Made by a program: the position numbers and the translations under genes. From Escherichia coli (lineage in GTDB: Bacteria > Pseudomonadota > Gammaproteobacteria > Enterobacterales > Enterobacteriaceae), in the NCBI RefSeq assembly GCF_041886205.1, contig NZ_CP169029.1: a stretch of DNA of 64,000 bases; one strand, written 5' to 3'. Shown in pieces: positions 45,311 through 54,957 of this stretch (position 1 is its first letter; each line of letters starts with the position of its first letter). Under the pieces are notes generated by a model, which did not search any database, had not been told where the DNA came from, and saw nothing but the letters and a program-made list of their open reading frames with translations.

Positions 45311-48300
45311 TTAGAACGTTTTCTTGAAGTTCAGCATCACGCCTTTGTCGCTGATGCCGTCCTCTTTCCAGTTGTACGCATCCAGATTCAGCGAACTTTC
45401 TTTGCTGCTGTACTTCACGCCGACGCTTGCCAGGCTGTTAATGCCGCCGCCCTTCTGACCGTCATCGACGTTAAAGTGCTGACTGCCTGCGCCTGCCAGG
45501 CTTGCCGTACGCTGGCTCTTCGCGTAGCTCAGGTTCGGCCCGCCTTCCAGCGTGGCGTTCGCACTCCAGCCGTCTTTTCCTGCATAATCCAGCTTCAGCC
45601 CGACGATGCTGTCCACCGCCGTTTCGCTGCCGCTGTTCATATTCAGGTTAAAGTCTCCGGCGTTACGCTCCTTATAGCCACCTTCCAGTGTGTGACGCAG
45701 TTTTACACCCGCATATGGCGTAACCTTCAGTCCTTCGCTCGGTTCGAAAGTCTTCGCTCCTTCGCTACGGAACTCCAGGTACTGCTGCTTCACGTCGGTA
45801 TCAGCCGTTTTGTTCGTGTTGCTAAATGCAATCGAGCGGCTGCTGTCAAGGTTGTGAACGTCGTAACGCAAGGCGTTATTCCAGTTCATGCCATTGTCGA
45901 AGGACATCTGATGTTTCAGGCCAAAGAACTGGCTATAACCGCCTGTAACGCCATTATCACCCGCTTTCTGCGCACCATCACCATCGAGACGAGCGATACC
46001 GTACTCCAGACTCATCGTCTGGCTTTCGCTCAGGTCGATGGTTTTACGCAATGCCAGCATGTCGTATTCGGTATTATTACCTAACTCGGCACGCGGATCG
46101 CCTTTCGCGACAACGTTGAACGCCAGACCGTTACCTACCTTCGGTGCGGCATCCGCCAACATACTAAAGCGGTTGCTTAACACGCGCGCTTCGCGGAATA
46201 CCGTGGTCGCCTGGCTACCGCTGACCTGTTTCAGAGCGCTGTTCAGTTCAGCAGTCGTGCCGACGTTCAGGCTGGTAAACAGTTCGTTGTTGGTGTAACC
46301 CGCATCCAGTGCTTTCGCGATGTCATTCACCGAAGCATCTGTTGCCACATCGGTATAAGCGTTTTTGCTCATGGTGACGTCAACGTTACCGCTGGCATCG
46401 GTGCTGCCTTTAGCAGTCCATACCACGGAGGTTGAGGTGATAGCATCCGCGTCGGTCAGGTTGCTGCCCTCCACCACGTTATCAAAATTAACGGTGGTGT
46501 CTGCCGTACAAGCGGTAAACCCGGTGTTGATCCCCACGCCGTTCATGCTGGCATTGTTGACCCTGAGCTTACCGGCGCTGCCATCGGCACTCGTTCCCAC
46601 CACGTAACCGTTGAGATTATTCATGCCGCCATCAACTGCATCACTTCCCGGCGTTAGGCTAACCGTAGTGGGATTCGGTACATCCGGCAACGTATAGTCG
46701 CCATAATGCAATTCCGTGTTATTACCGTTGTTACCGTTCACGCCTTCAACATTGACGCTGTCGCCCTGCTTAATCAGCCCCGATCCTGTCACGCCATCCG
46801 CAATGACCACCGTGCCGTTGTTGACCACGTGACCTTCTGTACCCAGCACGCTGAATGCAAACGAGTCATTGGCGAAGATATTGATGGTGCCGTTGTTCTC
46901 GATCACCGCATCCGCCGTGGCGTTAGCATCGAGTTGCATACCGATCATGCCCGTATCGGTAGTGCCCTCTGTACCGAGGTTGATGGTGCCAGTGTTAACC
47001 AGTTGCGCATTCTTATCACCTTCCATAGCCACAGCACCGGTGCCGCTGATATTCATCGTGCCGTCATTCTGCGCAATGAAGTTACTGTGAGTGAATTTCA
47101 CGGCGCTGGTACTGTCGTGGTCGAAGTTGATGACCCCGTTATCCAGATTCCAGAAGAATGCGCTCTGATCGCCAGCGTTATTGGCGCTCACCACCAGCGA
47201 CTTCGCAGAGACATCAATCGTTCCATCGTTGATAAAGCGACCATTCCCACCCCACATATTGACAGCACCGTTATGTGAGGAATTACTGATGTCCATGTGA
47301 CCAGTGTTATAAAGCGTACCGGACTGATTAATATGCACAGCATTCTTGTTGTTATCGAGGATAAACTCACCGCTGTTATTGAAGACGGCGTTGTTATTAA
47401 CTTCCAGCATACCTGCGTTATTGCCGCCACTGCTACTACCGAGGCGCCAGGTTCCTTCGTTATTGACCCAGGCATCACCGGTTAATGCAGAACCATTGTC
47501 CACTTTGCCATCTTGTAGGTTATTAAAGATGCCACTGGTCTGAATAATACGTTTACTCACCGTACCACTGTTATTAAAGACGCCGGATTTTTGCACAACA
47601 TTGCTAATAGTACCGGAGTTGTTCACCAGATTAGTGCTAGCCCCAGCATACATTGTCACATTACCGTTGATGGTACCCTCATTATTGAGTACCCCCCCCT
47701 GAGCATCAATATTACCCATCGAGCCAGCATTATCTATTACAGCATCTGGTGCCAATTTCACCATGGAGTTAATAATCCCCGTAGAGGCATTTTCGAGCGT
47801 ACCACTCCGAACGTTAATATCACTACCAGAAGCCGTCCCCGCATTAATAACGCTTCCGGGCACTGCGTCAGTTATCACCACAGAATTAATGAAGTTTGTC
47901 GACTCACCATCTGCCACCAGGATATCACCACCAGAGTATTGCAATGAGACATAATTATCGCCCTGGTTATATTCATCCGCACTCTGACAAATACCAAAAG
48001 TACAGAACCTGCCATAGTTAATAATTATTCCTGTTCCATCGCTGTAAAATGCCTGGCCGATATTTGTATCGATATTAATTACACCCGTTATATCATTAAT
48101 TGCCATACCACTATTAATTGCACCCACCGCGAACAGCTGGTTCTCTTGCTGCTTCGTCACGCCCTCATCTGCGGTGAGGTTGATTGTCCCCTGGTTGACA
48201 ACGGTCCCGCCGCTCATCGCCAGCATACCGAAACCTTCGTTATTAACATTGATGGTTCCGGTATTTAACCCACTGGCATCGCCATTTCCGATATCGGTTG

Positions 48301-51196
48301 ACCCCACAAGAACGCCACCGGACATAAGATAAGGATGGGACGTTTGCCAGTAGGATTTACTGATGATATTACCATCGCTGTCCAGTTCGGGAATAAAGCC
48401 ATCGACATTGATTTCCCCGGCGTTGGTCGCCGTGCCTTTAGATGCGGCGACGGCATAAATCCCCGCCCCCTGCAGATTCATGGTGGCGTCGGATTCATTG
48501 ATCACGCTGCCATCATTACTGGCCCACAGACCATAGTTGGCACCGAAATACCATTTCAGAGGGGCTTCAGATATCCCTCCGGCAAAAGCAGGCGTCGTTA
48601 CAGAAAGCAGATTTATCACGCCACCCGACGCATTCGTAACCTGAGAATTCTGGCCACGAGCACGCATTGTCCCCACCGTGGTGAATTGCTCACCGCTAGG
48701 TTTGACATTAATAGTTCCACTATTAGTGATATGTGCACCATTGTTAGCCATCATTAAATCCTGGCTATCCAGCGTGTTAATCACACCTTTGTTTTCAACG
48801 CCGGACTGACTGCCAGTAGCAGAAATAAGCGCACGATTATCGAAGAAATAGTCGGTATCTCTGACTTTACTGGATATATCCGTTACAGAGTTTTTATCAA
48901 ATATAACATTTCCACCGTCCGCCACCGTGACCAACGTAAAGGCACCCACTACCTGACGGATATCCATAGTTGAATGGCCACTAATGTTAACTGTATTATC
49001 ACCAATAATTGATATACCATCTATGATATGCGCGGAGCTATCCCCAGCAACATTAATACCACCATCGATATTAATGGTATTATTCGTACCGGAAACGACC
49101 ATGCCATTCGCCAAGTGATCTTGATATATTAATACACCTTCCACCGTAATATTAACATGACCACTAATATCCACCGTGTTATTTTCACCACTGATCACGC
49201 CGCCGCTTATCGGAGTGATTTGTGCATCAGCGTTATCGCCGAGACTGGAATTAATATTAATGCTTCCGTCAACGCTAATATGGCTGTCATTACCCGTCAG
49301 GCTGAAACCTGTAGCACCCGGCGCATTGCCTTCGCTATCTGGTTGCTGGAATACGTTAATATCTCCGCTTAATTCAACCTGCTCACGGTCACCCACAATG
49401 GATACCCCAGTTCCGTATCGCGAAACATCAATTTCGCCCACGTTACCAAAAACTTCATCATCACCATCTATCAGAACTCCCACAGAACCGGAATCCGTAA
49501 CAACAATCTTGCCTTTATTACTTATCTGCGAGTTATTACCGGCGATATAAATACCCGTTGCCCCTCCGCTGACGTAGAGGTCACCTTCCTGGCTAATTGT
49601 TGCATTGTGCCCAGCAACTTTTGTCCCTACCGCATTCTCACCGTCAACCGTCATATCCCCGGCGATATTCATCTCATTGCCATCGCCAGTGATGGTTATA
49701 CCGGTGGCATTCTCACCCAAAATATTAAGATCATAGGTCGCCAGGGTAATACTATTGTTGTCGCCGATAATCTCCATGCCGGTTGTATCGTCTTTAACCA
49801 ACATCGAGCCAGCAAGCGAAATACTGCTGCTGTCCCCGGTGATTTTTACACCAGTACCGTTATTTGTCGTGGTGATGTCCCCCACATTGACAAAGGTAGT
49901 ATTATCACCATTGATTAACACGCCATAGGGGTTTCCATCACCGTCCGCCTGACCAACATTGATATCACCAATGTTCATAAAGGTTGTCTGATCGCCATCC
50001 AGCAACACACCGATGGAACTGTCATCCACCACAGTAATATTACCTTTATTACTGATGACAGTACCCTTACCCTCGGCGTCAATACCGTGTGCGCCACCGC
50101 TGACGTATAAGTCACCCTGCTGCCTTACAATGGCATCTTCGCCGATAATTTTTGACCCCGTTGAATTTGCACCATCAACGGTCATGTCGCCTTTGATTTC
50201 AACGCGGGCATCATCCCCTGTAATCACACTCCCCGTGCCTCCATTCGCGATTTCAACATCACCAACGGTGTCCAGCGTGGTACGATCGCCATTAACAATA
50301 ACTGCCGCCCCACCATCAACTTCCGTCTCACCATTATTAGTAATGGTGATATCATCACCGGTAAGAATACCTACCACCGAACCTTCACCAATCGCGGTAG
50401 TTTTGCCATCGTTGTTCAGGGTGATGTCGTTACCGTCAACGTTTATCACAACGCCGCCATTCAGCGCGATGTTGCCGCCATGGTCGGTAATAGTGGCATC
50501 GTTAATATGGAAATGTTCGCCAGTTGTACCGTCTGCGGTGGTGAGTGACTCTATGATTATTTCGATTTTTCCCGCTTCGTCATAGCGCCAGGTGGAGGTT
50601 CCGCCAGGATTGACGCCATTGAACGAAGCCGTGTTAGCCGCCTCGTCGACTAACCAATCCTTCACGATTGTGGTAGTGCCGCCAGGTCCGGTAAGCGTAT
50701 AGCTGCCATCGTCATTTTTGGTGTAGGTAAAGGTGGTATCACGTAATTTTAGGGTCTTCGCGTCCTGATCCCAGGTGACATCGTTTTTATAGACCACAGG
50801 ATCGTGTTTGACTGGCGTGTCATCGCCACCGTCGTCCGGGGTATCATCGCCGCCATCATCCGGCGGGACAGGTGTGTCGCCGCCATCATCCGGCACCGGA
50901 GACGGATCGTCATGATGATTATTATTATCGTGGAGTGCATATACTGCGACGCCTGTGACTGCCGCTGCCAGCCCCACTGCAGCCCAGGGTAATAACTCAT
51001 TATCTTCAACTGATTTACACTCTGCCGGCAGCTTTTCTAGCTGTTCTTTACTTAGTGATTTAATATTAGCCGGGCAGCTAATCTTGCTGGATTTACGAGA
51101 TTCATCCGATGTTTCCGCTATCGACGTATCTGCCGCCCATGTCTGACTGCTTAACGCCATTGCAACACAGACACTGAGCAATTTTTTCCTTTGCAT
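45311..51196 (-). CDS. ydbA: Intact autotransporter YdbA, 1961 aa (signal peptide, repetitive beta-helix passenger, C-terminal beta-barrel)
   Basis: Single ORF 45311..51196; signal peptide MQRKKLLSVCVAMALSSQTWA; GD/GN-rich repeats; C-terminal barrel ending KKTF; SD GAGGA upstream of ATG. Confidence 0.85.
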   Translation of the reverse strand: MQRKKLLSVCVAMALSSQTWAADTSIAETSDESRKSSKISCPANIKSLSKEQLEKLPAECKSVEDNELLPWAAVGLAAAVTGVAVYALHDNNNHHDDPSPVPDDGGDTPVPPDDGGDDTPDDGGDDTPVKHDPVVYKNDVTWDQDAKTLKLRDTTFTYTKNDDGSYTLTGPGGTTTIVKDWLVDEAANTASFNGVNPGGTSTWRYDEAGKIEIIIESLTTADGTTGEHFHINDATITDHGGNIALNGGVVINVDGNDITLNNDGKTTAIGEGSVVGILTGDDITITNNGETEVDGGAAVIVNGDRTTLDTVGDVEIANGGTGSVITGDDARVEIKGDMTVDGANSTGSKIIGEDAIVRQQGDLYVSGGAHGIDAEGKGTVISNKGNITVVDDSSIGVLLDGDQTTFMNIGDINVGQADGDGNPYGVLINGDNTTFVNVGDITTTNNGTGVKITGDSSSISLAGSMLVKDDTTGMEIIGDNNSITLATYDLNILGENATGITITGDGNEMNIAGDMTVDGENAVGTKVAGHNATISQEGDLYVSGGATGIYIAGNNSQISNKGKIVVTDSGSVGVLIDGDDEVFGNVGEIDVSRYGTGVSIVGDREQVELSGDINVFQQPDSEGNAPGATGFSLTGNDSHISVDGSININSSLGDNADAQITPISGGVISGENNTVDISGHVNITVEGVLIYQDHLANGMVVSGTNNTINIDGGINVAGDSSAHIIDGISIIGDNTVNISGHSTMDIRQVVGAFTLVTVADGGNVIFDKNSVTDISSKVRDTDYFFDNRALISATGSQSGVENKGVINTLDSQDLMMANNGAHITNSGTINVKPSGEQFTTVGTMRARGQNSQVTNASGGVINLLSVTTPAFAGGISEAPLKWYFGANYGLWASNDGSVINESDATMNLQGAGIYAVAASKGTATNAGEINVDGFIPELDSDGNIISKSYWQTSHPYLMSGGVLVGSTDIGNGDASGLNTGTINVNNEGFGMLAMSGGTVVNQGTINLTADEGVTKQQENQLFAVGAINSGMAINDITGVINIDTNIGQAFYSDGTGIIINYGRFCTFGICQSADEYNQGDNYVSLQYSGGDILVADGESTNFINSVVITDAVPGSVINAGTASGSDINVRSGTLENASTGIINSMVKLAPDAVIDNAGSMGNIDAQGGVLNNEGTINGNVTMYAGASTNLVNNSGTISNVVQKSGVFNNSGTVSKRIIQTSGIFNNLQDGKVDNGSALTGDAWVNNEGTWRLGSSSGGNNAGMLEVNNNAVFNNSGEFILDNNKNAVHINQSGTLYNTGHMDISNSSHNGAVNMWGGNGRFINDGTIDVSAKSLVVSANNAGDQSAFFWNLDNGVINFDHDSTSAVKFTHSNFIAQNDGTMNISGTGAVAMEGDKNAQLVNTGTINLGTEGTTDTGMIGMQLDANATADAVIENNGTINIFANDSFAFSVLGTEGHVVNNGTVVIADGVTGSGLIKQGDSVNVEGVNGNNGNNTELHYGDYTLPDVPNPTTVSLTPGSDAVDGGMNNLNGYVVGTSADGSAGKLRVNNASMNGVGINTGFTACTADTTVNFDNVVEGSNLTDADAITSTSVVWTAKGSTDASGNVDVTMSKNAYTDVATDASVNDIAKALDAGYTNNELFTSLNVGTTAELNSALKQVSGSQATTVFREARVLSNRFSMLADAAPKVGNGLAFNVVAKGDPRAELGNNTEYDMLALRKTIDLSESQTMSLEYGIARLDGDGAQKAGDNGVTGGYSQFFGLKHQMSFDNGMNWNNALRYDVHNLDSSRSIAFSNTNKTADTDVKQQYLEFRSEGAKTFEPSEGLKVTPYAGVKLRHTLEGGYKERNAGDFNLNMNSGSETAVDSIVGLKLDYAGKDGWSANATLEGGPNLSYAKSQRTASLAGAGSQHFNVDDGQKGGGINSLASVGVKYSSKESSLNLDAYNWKEDGISDKGVMLNFKKTF
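50818..50896. repeat. Imperfect tandem repeat (three ~24-30-bp units) encoding Pro/Asp/Gly-rich linker in ydbA
   Basis: Repeated TCGCCGCCATCATCCGG units encoding PDDGGD(D)TP x3. Confidence 0.6.
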
Positions 51197-51597
51197 ATGA
51201 AATTCCTCATAAATAGATGATTACGCAGCCCAGATAAACTGCACAGGGTTAAATAGTTACAAATATTCGAAATCTGGATATTGTTTTTAACAGAATAAAT
51301 ATATTGATTTAGCGAATGCATTTATTCATTAAGTCAATACATCTTTTCTTTAATTTATATTTTTAACGCATTTATTTCAACTTAAAATATGACGCAATTG
51401 AGATTAAATCCGATAACACTGATGAATTAAATAATGCAATTAATTCATGAAATAAATAAATTATCATGTGAATGAAGCATTCATCATCGGCATCTATATG
51501 AAATTAAATGAAAAATAATTCTCAATAGCATTGCAGTTAATATTGAATATTTCAGGAGGTACAACCAGGCAGATTTTTCTCGACGAATACCGACTTA
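51197..51597. promoter_or_regulatory. Highly AT-rich 400-bp intergenic region upstream of ydbA (probable promoter / nucleoid-protein-bound region)
   Basis: Long AT-rich tracts between ydbL stop and ydbA start. Confidence 0.4.
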
Positions 51598-51924
51598 TTA
51601 TTTTTGCAACCACATTCCGTTTATCCCGCGAATGTATTCTCCCGGCTTAGCTTTTGCTACCAGTTTCTGCCCCGCCAATTTTTCCACTTCCGCAACCGGC
51701 AGATTATTTTTCATGGCGAGTTGTTGATAGCTCTTATTACGCGATTCATTAATCCTTTTGACTAACATCTGTGTTTCGGTATCCGCCTTTAATGCAACCA
51801 GATAACCATTATACGTTTCGCCAACACGCCCCTGAGTTCGAGCGTCATCCAGCGTCAGAGCCATCGCACTGGTGCTAAATAAGGCATTAATGACAAAACA
51901 CAGTATTAAACTTCTCTTCATCAT
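51598..51924 (-). CDS. ydbL: Periplasmic protein YdbL (DUF1318), 108 aa
   Basis: ORF 51598..52002; ATG at 51924 (MMKRSLILCFVINALFSTSAMA signal peptide). Confidence 0.8.
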   Translation of the reverse strand: MMKRSLILCFVINALFSTSAMALTLDDARTQGRVGETYNGYLVALKADTETQMLVKRINESRNKSYQQLAMKNNLPVAEVEKLAGQKLVAKAKPGEYIRGINGMWLQK

Positions 51925-51928
51925 CGCC

Positions 51929-52114
51929 TCAGAAAAGATCGCTACGAGTTTCAAGCAGCTCTTCGACATCTTTGTCTGCCTTGATGATGATCTCATGCTC
52001 AATTTTAACGTTCATATTGATAGTGATCGGTTCCTTAGGTGCAGCGACTTCAATGCGAGGCGTACAGCCAACCAGCATAAAAGATGACGTCAACGCAGCC
52101 AGTAAAATTTTCAT
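51929..52114 (-). CDS. ynbE: Lipoprotein YnbE, 61 aa
   Basis: ORF 51929..52114; lipobox LVGC; start overlaps ydbH stop. Confidence 0.8.
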   Translation of the reverse strand: MKILLAALTSSFMLVGCTPRIEVAAPKEPITINMNVKIEHEIIIKADKDVEELLETRSDLF

Positions 52115-54750
52115 TGTTTTTCCTCACACTCTTTTCCTTGCGGACAGTCATTTCCCGGCAGACGTGCGTTCTGCTCCAACCATGCCTGGAGATTATCGCC
52201 AAAGCGTAAACTGCGCCACAGCGTAAAAATATTCTCTTCATGATGGTAATTAAGGTTTACCGTACCGCTTTTACCATCAACGCGACTGGTACCTGTAATG
52301 TTGGCCTGCATGGTTAATAAACCGAGATTATCTAAATTAATATTTGTCGATGAACGGCTAATTTCCATATAGCGCAACCAGTTAATTGCTGAACCCGCAG
52401 TCATATTGTCTTTCACCACCGCATCTGCGGTGTCTTTATCCAGCCGCAAGGTCATTGGCCCGCTATTTGCCAGCCAACCATCTTTCACTATCCATTTTTC
52501 GTTGTTTAGCCATAACGGCAATGCACCACTAAATGCCCCGGACATGGCGAATTGTTTCGGATTGACGGCGCTAACCAGTTCGCTGGATGAGAGATTATTC
52601 AGCCGCAACAGCGCCGAGTCATGTTGCGGCATACGTAATTGTTTCATCAGTACGTTACCGCCTAACACATCGACGCTAACATCAGTCAACAGTAATGGTT
52701 CTTCTTCAGTCCACGGATAACGCCCTTGCAAATCAGCCGTAATATTTTTCGCTGTCACCAGATTAATCACTTCGGCAATTCGCAACGTAACGGGGCCGCG
52801 AGTCCCCAGATGCCAGGCTCCATCGGCAAAACGGAAAGGCAGGACAAAATCGACACCGTTAACCTGATTATCTGGCATCCAGGCACTACCGCCTTTCAAC
52901 ACGCCGTGCCCTCCCGCGCGGAATCCTTGTTCAGGCGCAGCAGAAAATGCAACCTGAGCATACAGTTCACCATCGCGTAAGTTCATCTTCCAGTCGGGTG
53001 GCACCAGCGGCTGGAATACAGTCAGTGATTGTTTAGGCCACCAGGCGTTACCGCGCAGACGAATACCGTCCCAGCGACCATTTACCCGAACCGGGCCAAT
53101 CTCACCAGCATGTAAATCGCCTTTAAAGAGGAAATAGGTCGGATCGCGCCCATCGACGCTAAATTTTAAGGTTGATGGCGGTAACACACTGCCGCCAGTG
53201 AACAGCGTTTGCCCGGCGTCCAGTGACAGCGCGCCGCTAAAAGAGGGATGCTGTGCGTCACGTACCCAGACGACGGGCTTGTCGAGAATTAATCGCGGCT
53301 TTTCTACCGTCATCGTACCGTATTGTAACTGGTCGAAACCGGTGGAGAGATCGGTCAGTGTAATCGTGCTGTCATGCCACTCACCCTTTCCTGCGACATC
53401 CCAGGTGGCATTCATCGGTGTAAAACTGCCTTTTCCCCAGTAGCGCCACTGCCAGCGGCCAGCGTCAGGGAGAAAATCATTCGCCAGCCCATCCATATGC
53501 AGCACGAAATCGCCCAGTTCATTTTCATGCGCCTGCAAAATGGCCTGCAAACGTCCGTCAACACCACGTTGGGTGACTTTTACACCCGCTAAAGGCCAGC
53601 GGATTTCATCGATGTCCAGCGAATCGATGACTCTTCCCTTCGAACGTAATAACGCGCCGGGCTCAAAGGCCAGCGTTGGGTCAGTCAGACTTCCACTTAG
53701 CTGCGCGGGTAAGCGGGCATATAAAATGAGGTCCGCCTGTTTCGCTTCACCGGTCAGCTGTAAAGGCAGCTGGCTGTTATCCATGCTTAATTTTCCTGGG
53801 CCAAAATTAAGCACCGCGTTGCCCTTACCCGCTTGCCCCTGGGTCAGCACACTCAGTCGTCCGCTGACCAAAGCGTTCTCAAGCCCTGCCTGCCAGTTGT
53901 CGACTTTGACACCCAGTCGGCCACTCAAAGGAAAACCTGCATACGGCCAGCTCCAGCGACCATCGCTTACGGTCAATTGTTGACGAGTAATTTGCCACGG
54001 CAAATCGAGCAACGGATCGCCGTTATCCCGTGCCAGCACGATCAATTGCCCGCTATTTTCCTGCCAGTCCAGCTCGGCATCCACCAGTGACGGTTCCTGA
54101 GGCAAGTTTAACGTCGCAGTAGCATGACCACTTACAGGAAGTCCATCCGGCACTAGCGGCATAGTAAATTCCCCCACCAGTTTTACCGGCGGCTGATTTT
54201 CAAACGCGACGACATCCAGTTCGCTGACTGTAAGTTGTTGCCCTTTCAGCTGGCCTTGAAATTTAACTTTTTCGCCCTGATAACGCAGTTGCTGGATATC
54301 AGAGGTTAATGCGAGAGAGAGTTTTCCCTGCCATTCCTGCCAGGGAGAAAAAATCAGTTTATCGATATTGATCCAGGTGTTAGGCAGCATGGACTGCCAC
54401 TGCGCGAGGGTTTTTGGAGCAGCTGGCGATTGCTCCGTCTGCGGCAATTTCGCCAGACAAGCAGAATCAAGTTCTACCGTGCCGACGTTCAATAACCAGC
54501 GGCTCGAATGTGAAAGGCTGGCGTTGGTGATATGCGCAAGCTGACAATCTCCCACCAGATAACGGAGATCGGGAATGATTAAACCTTTACGCGTAATGCG
54601 TGGGCTTTCATCTAATGCAATACGTGTCCCGAGCGGTAGCCAGATGCCCGCCAGTGTGGGAACCCACAGCCCGAGCGTCATCAGCAGCGTCAACGGCACA
54701 AGAATAATCAGTAATAACAGCGCGAGAACGGCTTTATATTTACCCAGCAT
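52111..54750 (-). CDS. ydbH: AsmA-family envelope protein YdbH, 879 aa
   Basis: ORF 52111..54750; N-terminal TM anchor, large periplasmic beta-rich domain. Confidence 0.9.
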   Translation of the reverse strand: MLGKYKAVLALLLLIILVPLTLLMTLGLWVPTLAGIWLPLGTRIALDESPRITRKGLIIPDLRYLVGDCQLAHITNASLSHSSRWLLNVGTVELDSACLAKLPQTEQSPAAPKTLAQWQSMLPNTWINIDKLIFSPWQEWQGKLSLALTSDIQQLRYQGEKVKFQGQLKGQQLTVSELDVVAFENQPPVKLVGEFTMPLVPDGLPVSGHATATLNLPQEPSLVDAELDWQENSGQLIVLARDNGDPLLDLPWQITRQQLTVSDGRWSWPYAGFPLSGRLGVKVDNWQAGLENALVSGRLSVLTQGQAGKGNAVLNFGPGKLSMDNSQLPLQLTGEAKQADLILYARLPAQLSGSLTDPTLAFEPGALLRSKGRVIDSLDIDEIRWPLAGVKVTQRGVDGRLQAILQAHENELGDFVLHMDGLANDFLPDAGRWQWRYWGKGSFTPMNATWDVAGKGEWHDSTITLTDLSTGFDQLQYGTMTVEKPRLILDKPVVWVRDAQHPSFSGALSLDAGQTLFTGGSVLPPSTLKFSVDGRDPTYFLFKGDLHAGEIGPVRVNGRWDGIRLRGNAWWPKQSLTVFQPLVPPDWKMNLRDGELYAQVAFSAAPEQGFRAGGHGVLKGGSAWMPDNQVNGVDFVLPFRFADGAWHLGTRGPVTLRIAEVINLVTAKNITADLQGRYPWTEEEPLLLTDVSVDVLGGNVLMKQLRMPQHDSALLRLNNLSSSELVSAVNPKQFAMSGAFSGALPLWLNNEKWIVKDGWLANSGPMTLRLDKDTADAVVKDNMTAGSAINWLRYMEISRSSTNINLDNLGLLTMQANITGTSRVDGKSGTVNLNYHHEENIFTLWRSLRFGDNLQAWLEQNARLPGNDCPQGKECEEKQ

Positions 54751-54957
54751 GGGTAGTTAATATCCTGATTTAGCGAAAAATTAAGCATTCAATACGGGTA
54801 TTGTGGCATGTTTAACCGTTCAGTTGAAGGTTGCGCCTACACTAAGCATAGTTGTTGATGAATTTTTCAATATCGCCATAGCTTTCAATTATATTTGAGA
54901 TTTTGTAAAATATTTTTAGTAGCTTAAATGTGATTCAACATCACTGGAGAAAGTCTT

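Follow-up and report, generated by a model that had tools for sequence, protein, structure and literature searches.

The 64,000-nucleotide stretch of Escherichia coli DNA analyzed here (the window) carries three genes on its minus strand, in the order ydbH, ynbE, ydbL, as read from the open reading frame (ORF) list and the minus-strand sequence. These genes and the region upstream of them are as follows:

52111–54750, minus strand: ydbH (from the ORF list), 879 amino acids; AsmA-like protein anchored in the inner membrane, with a lipid-transport beta-groove
51929–52114, minus strand: ynbE (from the ORF list), 61 amino acids; outer-membrane lipoprotein capping YdbH
51598–51921, minus strand: ydbL, 107 amino acids from the conserved start, with an alternative ATG at 51924; periplasmic DUF1318 chaperone-like protein
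54751–54957, no strand assigned: divergent intergenic region between ldhA and ydbH, 207 bp; presumed seat of the operon promoter

Profile matches agree with the gene identities given in the original prediction (an AsmA-family protein, a small lipoprotein, and a DUF1318 protein). YdbH matches PF11739 (E = 3.7e-290; 966 bits, cutoff 26.3) over residues 14–862 and profile positions 1–892 of 893, and reaches 1398 bits against the equivalog model NF007971 (cutoff 824); as expected of the family, its N-terminal hydrophobic segment AVLALLLLIILVPLTLLMTLGLW (about residues 7–29, read by eye from the translation) is a predicted transmembrane anchor. YnbE matches PF13617 (E = 3e-16; 59.3 bits, cutoff 25.8), and its translation contains a lipobox, L-V-G-C, at residues 14–17 with threonine at position +2; the protein is thus a predicted lipoprotein, with a lipidatable cysteine and no inner-membrane retention signal. 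YdbL matches PF07027 (E = 1.8e-29; 102.5 bits, cutoff 27) and the structure of a "Probable chaperone-like protein YdbL" (PDB 28oj; E = 1.5e-34), and its signal peptide ends in AMA before LTLDD.

The region is found in 5,417 of 5,426 complete E. coli genomes, and the matched genomes annotate the first gene as ydbH. The K-12 operon (b1381–b1383) shares with the window its gene order, the ATGA overlap, the GAGGA motif, and the 7-nt spacer described below, and the DNA of ydbH and ynbE is 96–100% identical between the two. They differ in the spacer, where GGTG in K-12 is GGCG in the window (T to C), in the allele class of ydbL, and in what lies downstream, which is the feaR-feaB-tynA-paa island in K-12 and an intact ydbA/bigA in the window.

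Co-transcription of ydbH, ynbE, and ydbL is stated by De'Ath et al. (2026; bioRxiv 10.64898/2026.03.16.712125), and the coding strand shows no terminator-like sites across the three genes or their junctions. A consensus scan returned three promoter-like matches, none of them convincing, compared with a mean of 6.1 in shuffled sequence, with a single weak match inside ydbH (52622–52594; 9 of 12 positions); this simple sigma-70 scan found no match in the ldhA/ydbH intergenic region and thus missed the ydbH promoter, so its result does not decide the operon structure.

Coupling at the ydbH/ynbE junction

Across the junctions, the minus strand reads ...gaggaaaaacaATGAaaatt. The ynbE start overlaps the ydbH stop, and a Shine-Dalgarno (SD) motif lies inside the upstream gene:

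52111–52114, minus strand: ATGA overlap of 4 nt, formed by the ynbE ATG (52114–52112) and the ydbH TGA (52113–52111); termination-reinitiation site
52121–52125, minus strand: GAGGA SD motif within ydbH, 6 nt before the ynbE ATG

The overlap had been predicted, and its coordinates are exact in the minus-strand sequence. A 4-nt overlap by itself is a common operon feature (among 13 co-directional neighbor pairs in the 22 kb around the locus in K-12, overlaps of 4 nt and of 1 nt each occur twice and one of 11 nt occurs once); what makes it notable here is its conservation. Among 72 Enterobacterales loci, 65 have an overlap, of the ATGA type in 51 and as a 1-nt TAATG or TGATG in 14. The remaining seven, mostly from distant genera, have none, which indicates that the system does not require it. 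An SD-like motif precedes ynbE in 67 of the 72 loci (GAGGA, AAGGA, or AGGAG in 65; GGAG in two), and in 28 aligned loci AGGA is invariant despite a switch between the codons GAG (Glu) and AAG (Lys).

An ATGA overlap whose SD motif sits within the upstream gene fits the geometry of coupled gene pairs, and coupling at this very junction was measured by Huber et al. (2019; PMC6728339) with a dual reporter containing the last 99 nt of ydbH and the first 30 nt of ynbE. When the upstream gene was given an early stop codon, ynbE translation became extremely low or undetectable, a sign of strong coupling, and removal of the intragenic SD motif abolished reinitiation; of the five E. coli overlaps examined in that study, ydbH/ynbE was the one in which the SD motif was strictly essential (Huber et al. 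2019). The window carries a single base change relative to the 129-nt K-12 fragment (position −65), and compared with the termination-reinitiation (TeRe) pairs of that study its ydbH/ynbE junction is the same in both the ATGA overlap and the intragenic SD motif at about 6 nt, with no differences. The translational coupling of ydbH and ynbE that had been predicted is therefore borne out by this reporter; overlap and coupling are also mentioned explicitly by Kumar et al. (2024; PMC11126948).

It could be argued that the overlap and the short spacer reflect compact packing, with ynbE and ydbL translated de novo from their own SD motifs. Neighboring operons commonly contain 4-nt and 1-nt overlaps and spacers below 15 nt, SD-like motifs stand at a workable distance before both genes, and bioBF, another of the five pairs, showed no coupling (Huber et al. 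2019). For ynbE this explanation is refuted by the near loss of its translation when the upstream gene is stopped early, and it also fits poorly with retention of the overlap in most loci although the C-terminal tail of YdbH is otherwise poorly conserved in the aligned loci. We consider packing very unlikely as an account of the operon as a whole, and prefer coupling by reinitiation at ynbE.

According to Huber et al. (2019), local RNA structure is the reason why ynbE is not initiated de novo. Such masking of its start codon is not supported here, since the ydbH/ynbE fragment is no more stably folded than shuffled versions of itself (z = +1.23) and no structure is shared among the genera compared. 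Consensus folds of 28 and 30 loci reached −3.4 and −1.05 kcal/mol and contained no base pairs close to either start; conserved RNA structure is absent at both junctions.

The ynbE/ydbL junction and the start of ydbL

At the second junction, the ynbE stop codon (TGA, 51931–51929) is followed by GGCG and two tandem ATG codons, at 51924 and 51921, which begin 4 nt and 7 nt past the stop, respectively. The stop itself forms part of a probable ribosome-binding element:

51927–51931, minus strand: TGAGG, the ynbE stop fused with a GAGG SD core, 5 nt before the conserved ydbL ATG

TGAGG occurs in 53 of 67 loci and is invariant in the 30 aligned loci. The original prediction placed the start of ydbL 4 nt after ynbE. 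An ATG does exist there and can be read, but it is probably not the real start, because only the 7-nt ATG is present in all 30 aligned loci, from many genera, and because the K-12 RefSeq annotation (ynbE end 5873, ydbL start 5881) and the PGAP annotation of the best-matching genome both use it. The start of ydbL is thus probably the ATG at 51921.

With its 7-nt gap, this junction falls outside the set tested by Huber et al. (2019), whose TeRe pairs overlap. Proximity suggests that ydbL may be coupled to ynbE, a link that is relevant because YdbL dosage is critical. One possible form of control would be a hairpin between the AUGAUG of the ydbL start and AUCAUCAUC inside ynbE, which would gate ydbL until ribosomes translating ynbE melted it. 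The minimum-free-energy fold of the 129-nt junction does pair UCAUCAUC with GAUGAUGA, in a helix that continues over the stop codon. Its stability, however, lies within that of shuffled sequences (z = −0.39; 55 of 200 shuffles were as stable), the pairing is missing from the 30-locus consensus structure and has no covariation, and other genera carry AUCCAUAUC in ynbE, with start regions that are not complementary to it. Attractive as it looks in the window, the hairpin was rejected for want of conservation, and we regard gating of this kind as extremely unlikely.

A rare and divergent ydbL allele

The downstream end of the operon lies in a region of deep allelic divergence:

47160–51921, minus strand: deep allelic divergence block, comprising ydbL, the ydbL-ydbA spacer, and the ydbA/bigA passenger domain

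The proximal edge of the block coincides exactly with the ydbL start codon in comparisons with both K-12 and 14EC033. Identity to K-12 is 97–100% down to 51921 and 53–80% beyond it; against 14EC033, the flanks are 93–94% identical, whereas the block is 70–72% identical or unalignable. At least three classes of ydbL allele occur in E. coli, a K-12 type (about 4,776 genomes), one also present in cryptic Escherichia clades (about 555), and the rare type of the window (about 114 of 5,426 genomes). All three adjoin a near-identical ynbE, and synonymous divergence among them is at between-genus levels. The window YdbL is 66% identical to that of the GTDB E. coli representative and, in its mature part, shares 59 of 86 residues (69%) with that of K-12. 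Among about 5.8 billion proteins no donor was identified; relatives at least 90% identical to it were found in E. coli only, the next being a single metagenome protein at 72% and the rest being at most 69% identical.

This low identity to other E. coli alleles, together with two window-specific changes (A80E and V97I) at positions invariant in the other 24 sequences compared, might suggest relaxed or positive selection on a decaying or function-shifted gene rather than an old or imported working allele. Yet dN/dS is 0.08–0.15 with dS at least 1.6, the ORF and signal peptide are intact, and matches to Pfam and PDB are strong. The protein keeps L24, R28, E35, Y40, N58, R61, Y65, L68, N72, K86, L87, W104, and K107, and its I79V, R90K, and E60S substitutions are tolerated in experiments or common in other genera. 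As judged from these substitution patterns, the gene appears to be under purifying selection with all essential residues kept, and decay or a shift of function is improbable; we favor an old or imported working allele.

Two associations of the allele with its neighbors were considered and rejected. Co-variation between the C-terminal helix of YnbE (EELLE in the window, EDLLK in the GTDB representative) and the YdbL allele was discarded because K-12 YnbE is 100% identical to that of the window, yet the K-12 YdbL allele differs. A strict tie between allele class and downstream neighbor also fails: window-type and 14EC033-type ydbL both adjoin bigA, but at one locus (L015) a 14EC033-like allele adjoins feaR. 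That the alleles are held by balancing selection or are functionally tuned, beyond hitchhiking beside the variable surface antigen (the BigA/YdbA adhesin), seems unlikely; if they were tuned, they might set different thresholds for YnbE multimerization or act on the neighboring autotransporter.

A coupled lipid-transport bridge and its modulator

Taken together, the locus is very probably the E. coli ydbH-ynbE-ydbL operon, encoding a YdbH-YnbE lipid-transport bridge together with YdbL, with synthesis of YnbE tied to that of YdbH. The physical interactions that had been predicted among the products are documented in published work. Site-specific in vivo photo-cross-links place the C-terminus of YdbH in contact with YnbE, and YnbE levels drop without ydbH (Kumar et al. 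2024). The structure of YdbL has been solved, and its binding to the C-terminal helix of YnbE was detected with a YnbE peptide by NMR and native mass spectrometry (De'Ath et al. 2026). Excess YdbL is lethal in a yhdP tamB double mutant, and replacement of the native TGAGGTGATG by a strong ribosome-binding site raised YdbL, with harmful effect (De'Ath et al. 2026).

On this reading, YdbH, TamB, and YhdP are three redundant AsmA-like systems that supply the outer membrane with phospholipid. YdbH, anchored in the inner membrane, stretches a beta-sheet groove across the periplasm, and YnbE, anchored in the outer membrane, adds beta-strands to the YdbH C-terminus and so completes the bridge. YdbL binds the C-terminal helix of YnbE and limits its self-multimerization, becoming harmful in excess. 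A ribosome ending ydbH reinitiates on ynbE at the ATGA, held by the GAGGA 6 nt upstream, so that production of YnbE depends on that of YdbH, a step demonstrated in experiments on nearly identical K-12 sequence. The ribosomes that translate ydbL have probably either come straight from the ynbE stop codon or initiated weakly de novo, and in both cases little YdbL would be made.

Like YdbH, TamB (with TamA) and YhdP are described as inner-membrane-anchored beta-groove proteins that span the periplasm and have redundant functions. YdbH is shorter and, to reach the outer membrane, needs the small lipoprotein YnbE in place of an Omp85 barrel such as TamA; unlike these systems, that of YdbH has a dedicated periplasmic modulator, YdbL.

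The overlapping codons and the protein contacts of this operon are already in the literature, and in that sense the original prediction is right but ordinary; the two checks it proposed, on operon structure and co-purification, have in effect been carried out by other groups. The present analysis makes small additions: the conservation of the overlap and SD motifs in Enterobacterales, the 7-nt start of ydbL, and the lack of a conserved mRNA structure that would mask ynbE. The rare ydbL allele would be of interest mainly as a naturally occurring variant for structure-function studies of the YdbL-YnbE interaction. As one of three redundant phospholipid routes to the Gram-negative outer membrane, a role resting on established work, the operon is a possible antibiotic target.

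Gene order and the ydbH/ynbE junction

Three ORFs stand in a row on the minus strand between 51598 and 54750, and the minus-strand junction sequence reads ...tgtGAGGAaaaacaATGAaaatt... (ORF list and window sequence):

54750..52111, minus strand: ydbH, ORF of 879 aa; full-length PF11739 (E 3.7e-290) and NCBIfam equivalog NF007971
52114..52112, minus strand: start ATG of ynbE
52113..52111, minus strand: stop TGA of ydbH
52114..51929, minus strand: ynbE, ORF of 61 aa; full-length PF13617 (E 3e-16)
51931..51929, minus strand: stop TGA of ynbE, then GGCG, ATG (51924) and ATG (51921)
51598-51921, minus strand: ydbL, inside an ORF ending at 51598; full-length PF07027 (DUF1318; E 1.8e-29)

The locus, annotated as ydbH, ynbE and ydbL and adjoining ldhA, was found in 5,417 of 5,426 complete E. 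coli genomes; this presence, together with the Pfam and NCBIfam matches, identifies the window as E. coli chromosome. The gene names and outer coordinates of the original prediction proved exact (ORFs, Pfam, NCBIfam and the annotation of matched genomes), and the ynbE start does overlap the ydbH stop in a minus-strand ATGA (52114..52111), an overlap of 4 nt. YdbH fragments from two non-enterobacterial assemblies, one 99% identical to the window protein (Caballeronia mineralivorans, 395-bp contig; L073) and one 77% identical (Halomonas elongata, 373-bp contig; L074), most probably reflect contaminated assemblies, not genuine homology.

A 4-nt overlap alone is ordinary; the 13 co-directional neighbour pairs in the 22 kb of K-12 at this locus include two 4-nt, two 1-nt and one 11-nt overlap. 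The meaning of the ydbH/ynbE overlap comes from its conservation. Among 72 junctions scored from 73 related loci (one genome per species, window counted in), 51 have an ATGA-type overlap, 14 a 1-nt overlap (TAATG or TGATG) and seven none, the last mostly in distant genera such as Serratia, Brenneria and Erwinia. A Shine-Dalgarno (SD)-like motif lies at most 20 nt upstream in 67/72 loci (GAGGA, AAGGA or AGGAG in 65, GGAG in two). Its AGGA is invariant in the alignment despite a switch between GAG (Glu) and AAG (Lys) codons and despite poor conservation elsewhere in the YdbH C-terminal tail; the pattern suggests that selection acts on the mRNA motif and not on the protein.

Translational coupling and protein partners

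The whole of the interpretation offered with the original prediction is already in the literature, including direct experiments on the ydbH/ynbE pair. Tight coupling was demonstrated on a near-identical fragment by Huber et al. (2019; PMC6728339), who chose ydbH/ynbE among five native E. coli pairs with 4-nt overlaps and built a dual reporter from the final 99 nt of ydbH and the initial 30 nt of ynbE. When the upstream gene carried an early stop, downstream translation was extremely low or undetectable, and removal of the SD, described as "strictly essential" for ydbH/ynbE, abolished reinitiation (PMC6728339). Because the window differs from K-12 at a single base of this fragment (position -65), the result transfers to the window.

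Physical contact is likewise published: the YdbH C-terminus was photo-cross-linked to YnbE in vivo, YnbE multimerisation was reported, and the ATGA overlap and coupling were invoked for the lowered YnbE levels without ydbH (Kumar, Davis and Ruiz 2024; PMC11126948). YdbL as a partner is covered by De'Ath et al. (2026; bioRxiv 10.64898/2026.03.16.712125), who solved its structure at 2.12 A (28oj in the PDB copy; window YdbL match E 1.5e-34) and mapped YdbL binding to the C-terminal helix of YnbE. In the same study excess YdbL killed a yhdP tamB double mutant, and a strong ribosome-binding site in place of the native TGAGGTGATG gave more YdbL and impaired function.

Experiments have shown that YdbH and YnbE bridge the two membranes, that YdbL binds to YnbE, and that ynbE translation is coupled to ydbH by SD-dependent termination-reinitiation. 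ydbL may be translated by ribosomes that reach the ynbE stop and terminate there, or through weak de novo initiation on the GAGG embedded in this stop; both routes would hold YdbL low relative to its partners. The suggestion that local RNA structure prevents de novo ynbE initiation (PMC6728339) is not supported; the ydbH/ynbE fragment had no folding advantage over shuffles (z = +1.23), and no conserved structure was found at this junction among 28 loci. A promoter and terminator scan, which gave nothing convincing within the operon, is uninformative since it also missed the ydbH promoter itself.

The start of ydbL

The original prediction placed ydbL 4 nt after the ynbE stop; an ATG is present there, but a second ATG, 7 nt off, is favoured by the cross-genus alignment, by annotation and by SD spacing. 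Only the 7-nt ATG is common to all 30 aligned loci (Escherichia, Citrobacter, Salmonella, Klebsiella, Raoultella, Enterobacter and others), and in many genera it is the single ATG. The 7-nt start appears in the K-12 RefSeq annotation (ynbE end 5873, ydbL start 5881) and in the PGAP annotation of the best-matching genome. The GA of the GAGG core is part of the ynbE stop, and the core is 5 nt away from the second ATG but only 2 nt from the first; TGAGG occurs at this junction in 53/67 loci and is invariant in 30/30 aligned loci.

Window-type YdbL has 123 aa in several database entries, from an in-frame ATG within ynbE (window 51922-51969, upstream of ydbL), and 134 aa from a TTG in the mechanical ORF list; these starts were rejected as over-extended, the 107-aa form being backed by the comparative alignment. 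A hairpin that would mask the ydbL start appears in the window fold and was rejected, being neither conserved nor more stable than shuffles. Where K-12 has GGTG in the ynbE-ydbL spacer, the window has GGCG (51925-51928); the T-to-C change leaves only GAGG of the longer SD complementarity, GAGGTGAT.

A rare and deeply divergent ydbL allele

Relative to the GTDB E. coli representative, the C-terminal 150 residues of YdbH are 96% and YnbE 93% identical, and YnbE is 100% identical to that of K-12. YdbL shares only 63-66% protein identity with any other Escherichia YdbL (69% with K-12 over the mature part), about the same as with those of Citrobacter, Salmonella and Klebsiella. At the DNA level, 114 of 5,426 complete E. 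coli genomes carry window-type ydbL (at least 95% identity) and 5,295 match at 60-80%, the window gene being ~70% identical to ydbL of the remaining E. coli genomes. About 4,776 genomes have a K-12-type gene (at least 90% identity) and about 555 a third type. The third-type YdbL of E. coli 14EC033 (L077, 9001-9324) and the YdbL of a cryptic-clade species, Escherichia sp. E1V33 (L003), are identical proteins, which suggests allele sharing or introgression here between Escherichia species.

The window departs from K-12 abruptly: it is 97-100% identical as far as the ydbL ATG (51921) and 53-80% identical within ydbL. Strain 14EC033 has the window's gene order (ydbL, bigA, pdxI), and two features describe the downstream region:

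51921 to about 47160: block divergent from 14EC033, comprising ydbL, the spacer and the BigA/YdbA passenger domain; flanks 93-94% identical
45311-51196, minus strand: ydbA/bigA, intact 1961-aa autotransporter-type ORF with BigA_N (PF25784) and BigA_beta (PF25783)

The ydbA/bigA passenger region either aligns with its 14EC033 counterpart at just 70-72% identity or is unalignable. The gene is intact in the window, whereas it is an IS-interrupted pseudogene in K-12 and is truncated by IS1 in MB53, the closest genome. In K-12 the feaR-feaB-tynA-paa (phenylacetate/phenylethylamine) island follows ydbL; in the window the island is absent and ydbA follows directly, after a 400-bp AT-rich spacer (about 51197-51597). 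The ydbL-ydbA region is heterogeneous in E. coli (Goldstone 2016, PMC4951805).

The window allele is under purifying selection (dN 0.25, dS 1.67, omega 0.15 against K-12; the corresponding dS between C. braakii and S. arizonae is 1.5). All residues essential according to De'Ath et al. are retained, and the only changes at positions they tested are I79V, R90K and E60S; V is the commonest residue at position 79 in other genera, R90K was shown to be tolerated, and E60 tolerates change (bioRxiv 10.64898/2026.03.16.712125).

A search of 5.8 billion proteins returned no relative of window YdbL above 72% identity outside E. coli, and thus no donor lineage. Read most simply, the allele represents a haplotype, either old or introgressed, in linkage with a hypervariable surface adhesin and on the margin of a heterogeneous region; one crossover point would fall in the conserved ynbE/ydbL junction. 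A limited literature search found no description of this allele structure. For population genetics the ydbL allele is a modest curiosity; in studies of the YdbL-YnbE interface it could serve as a natural variant.
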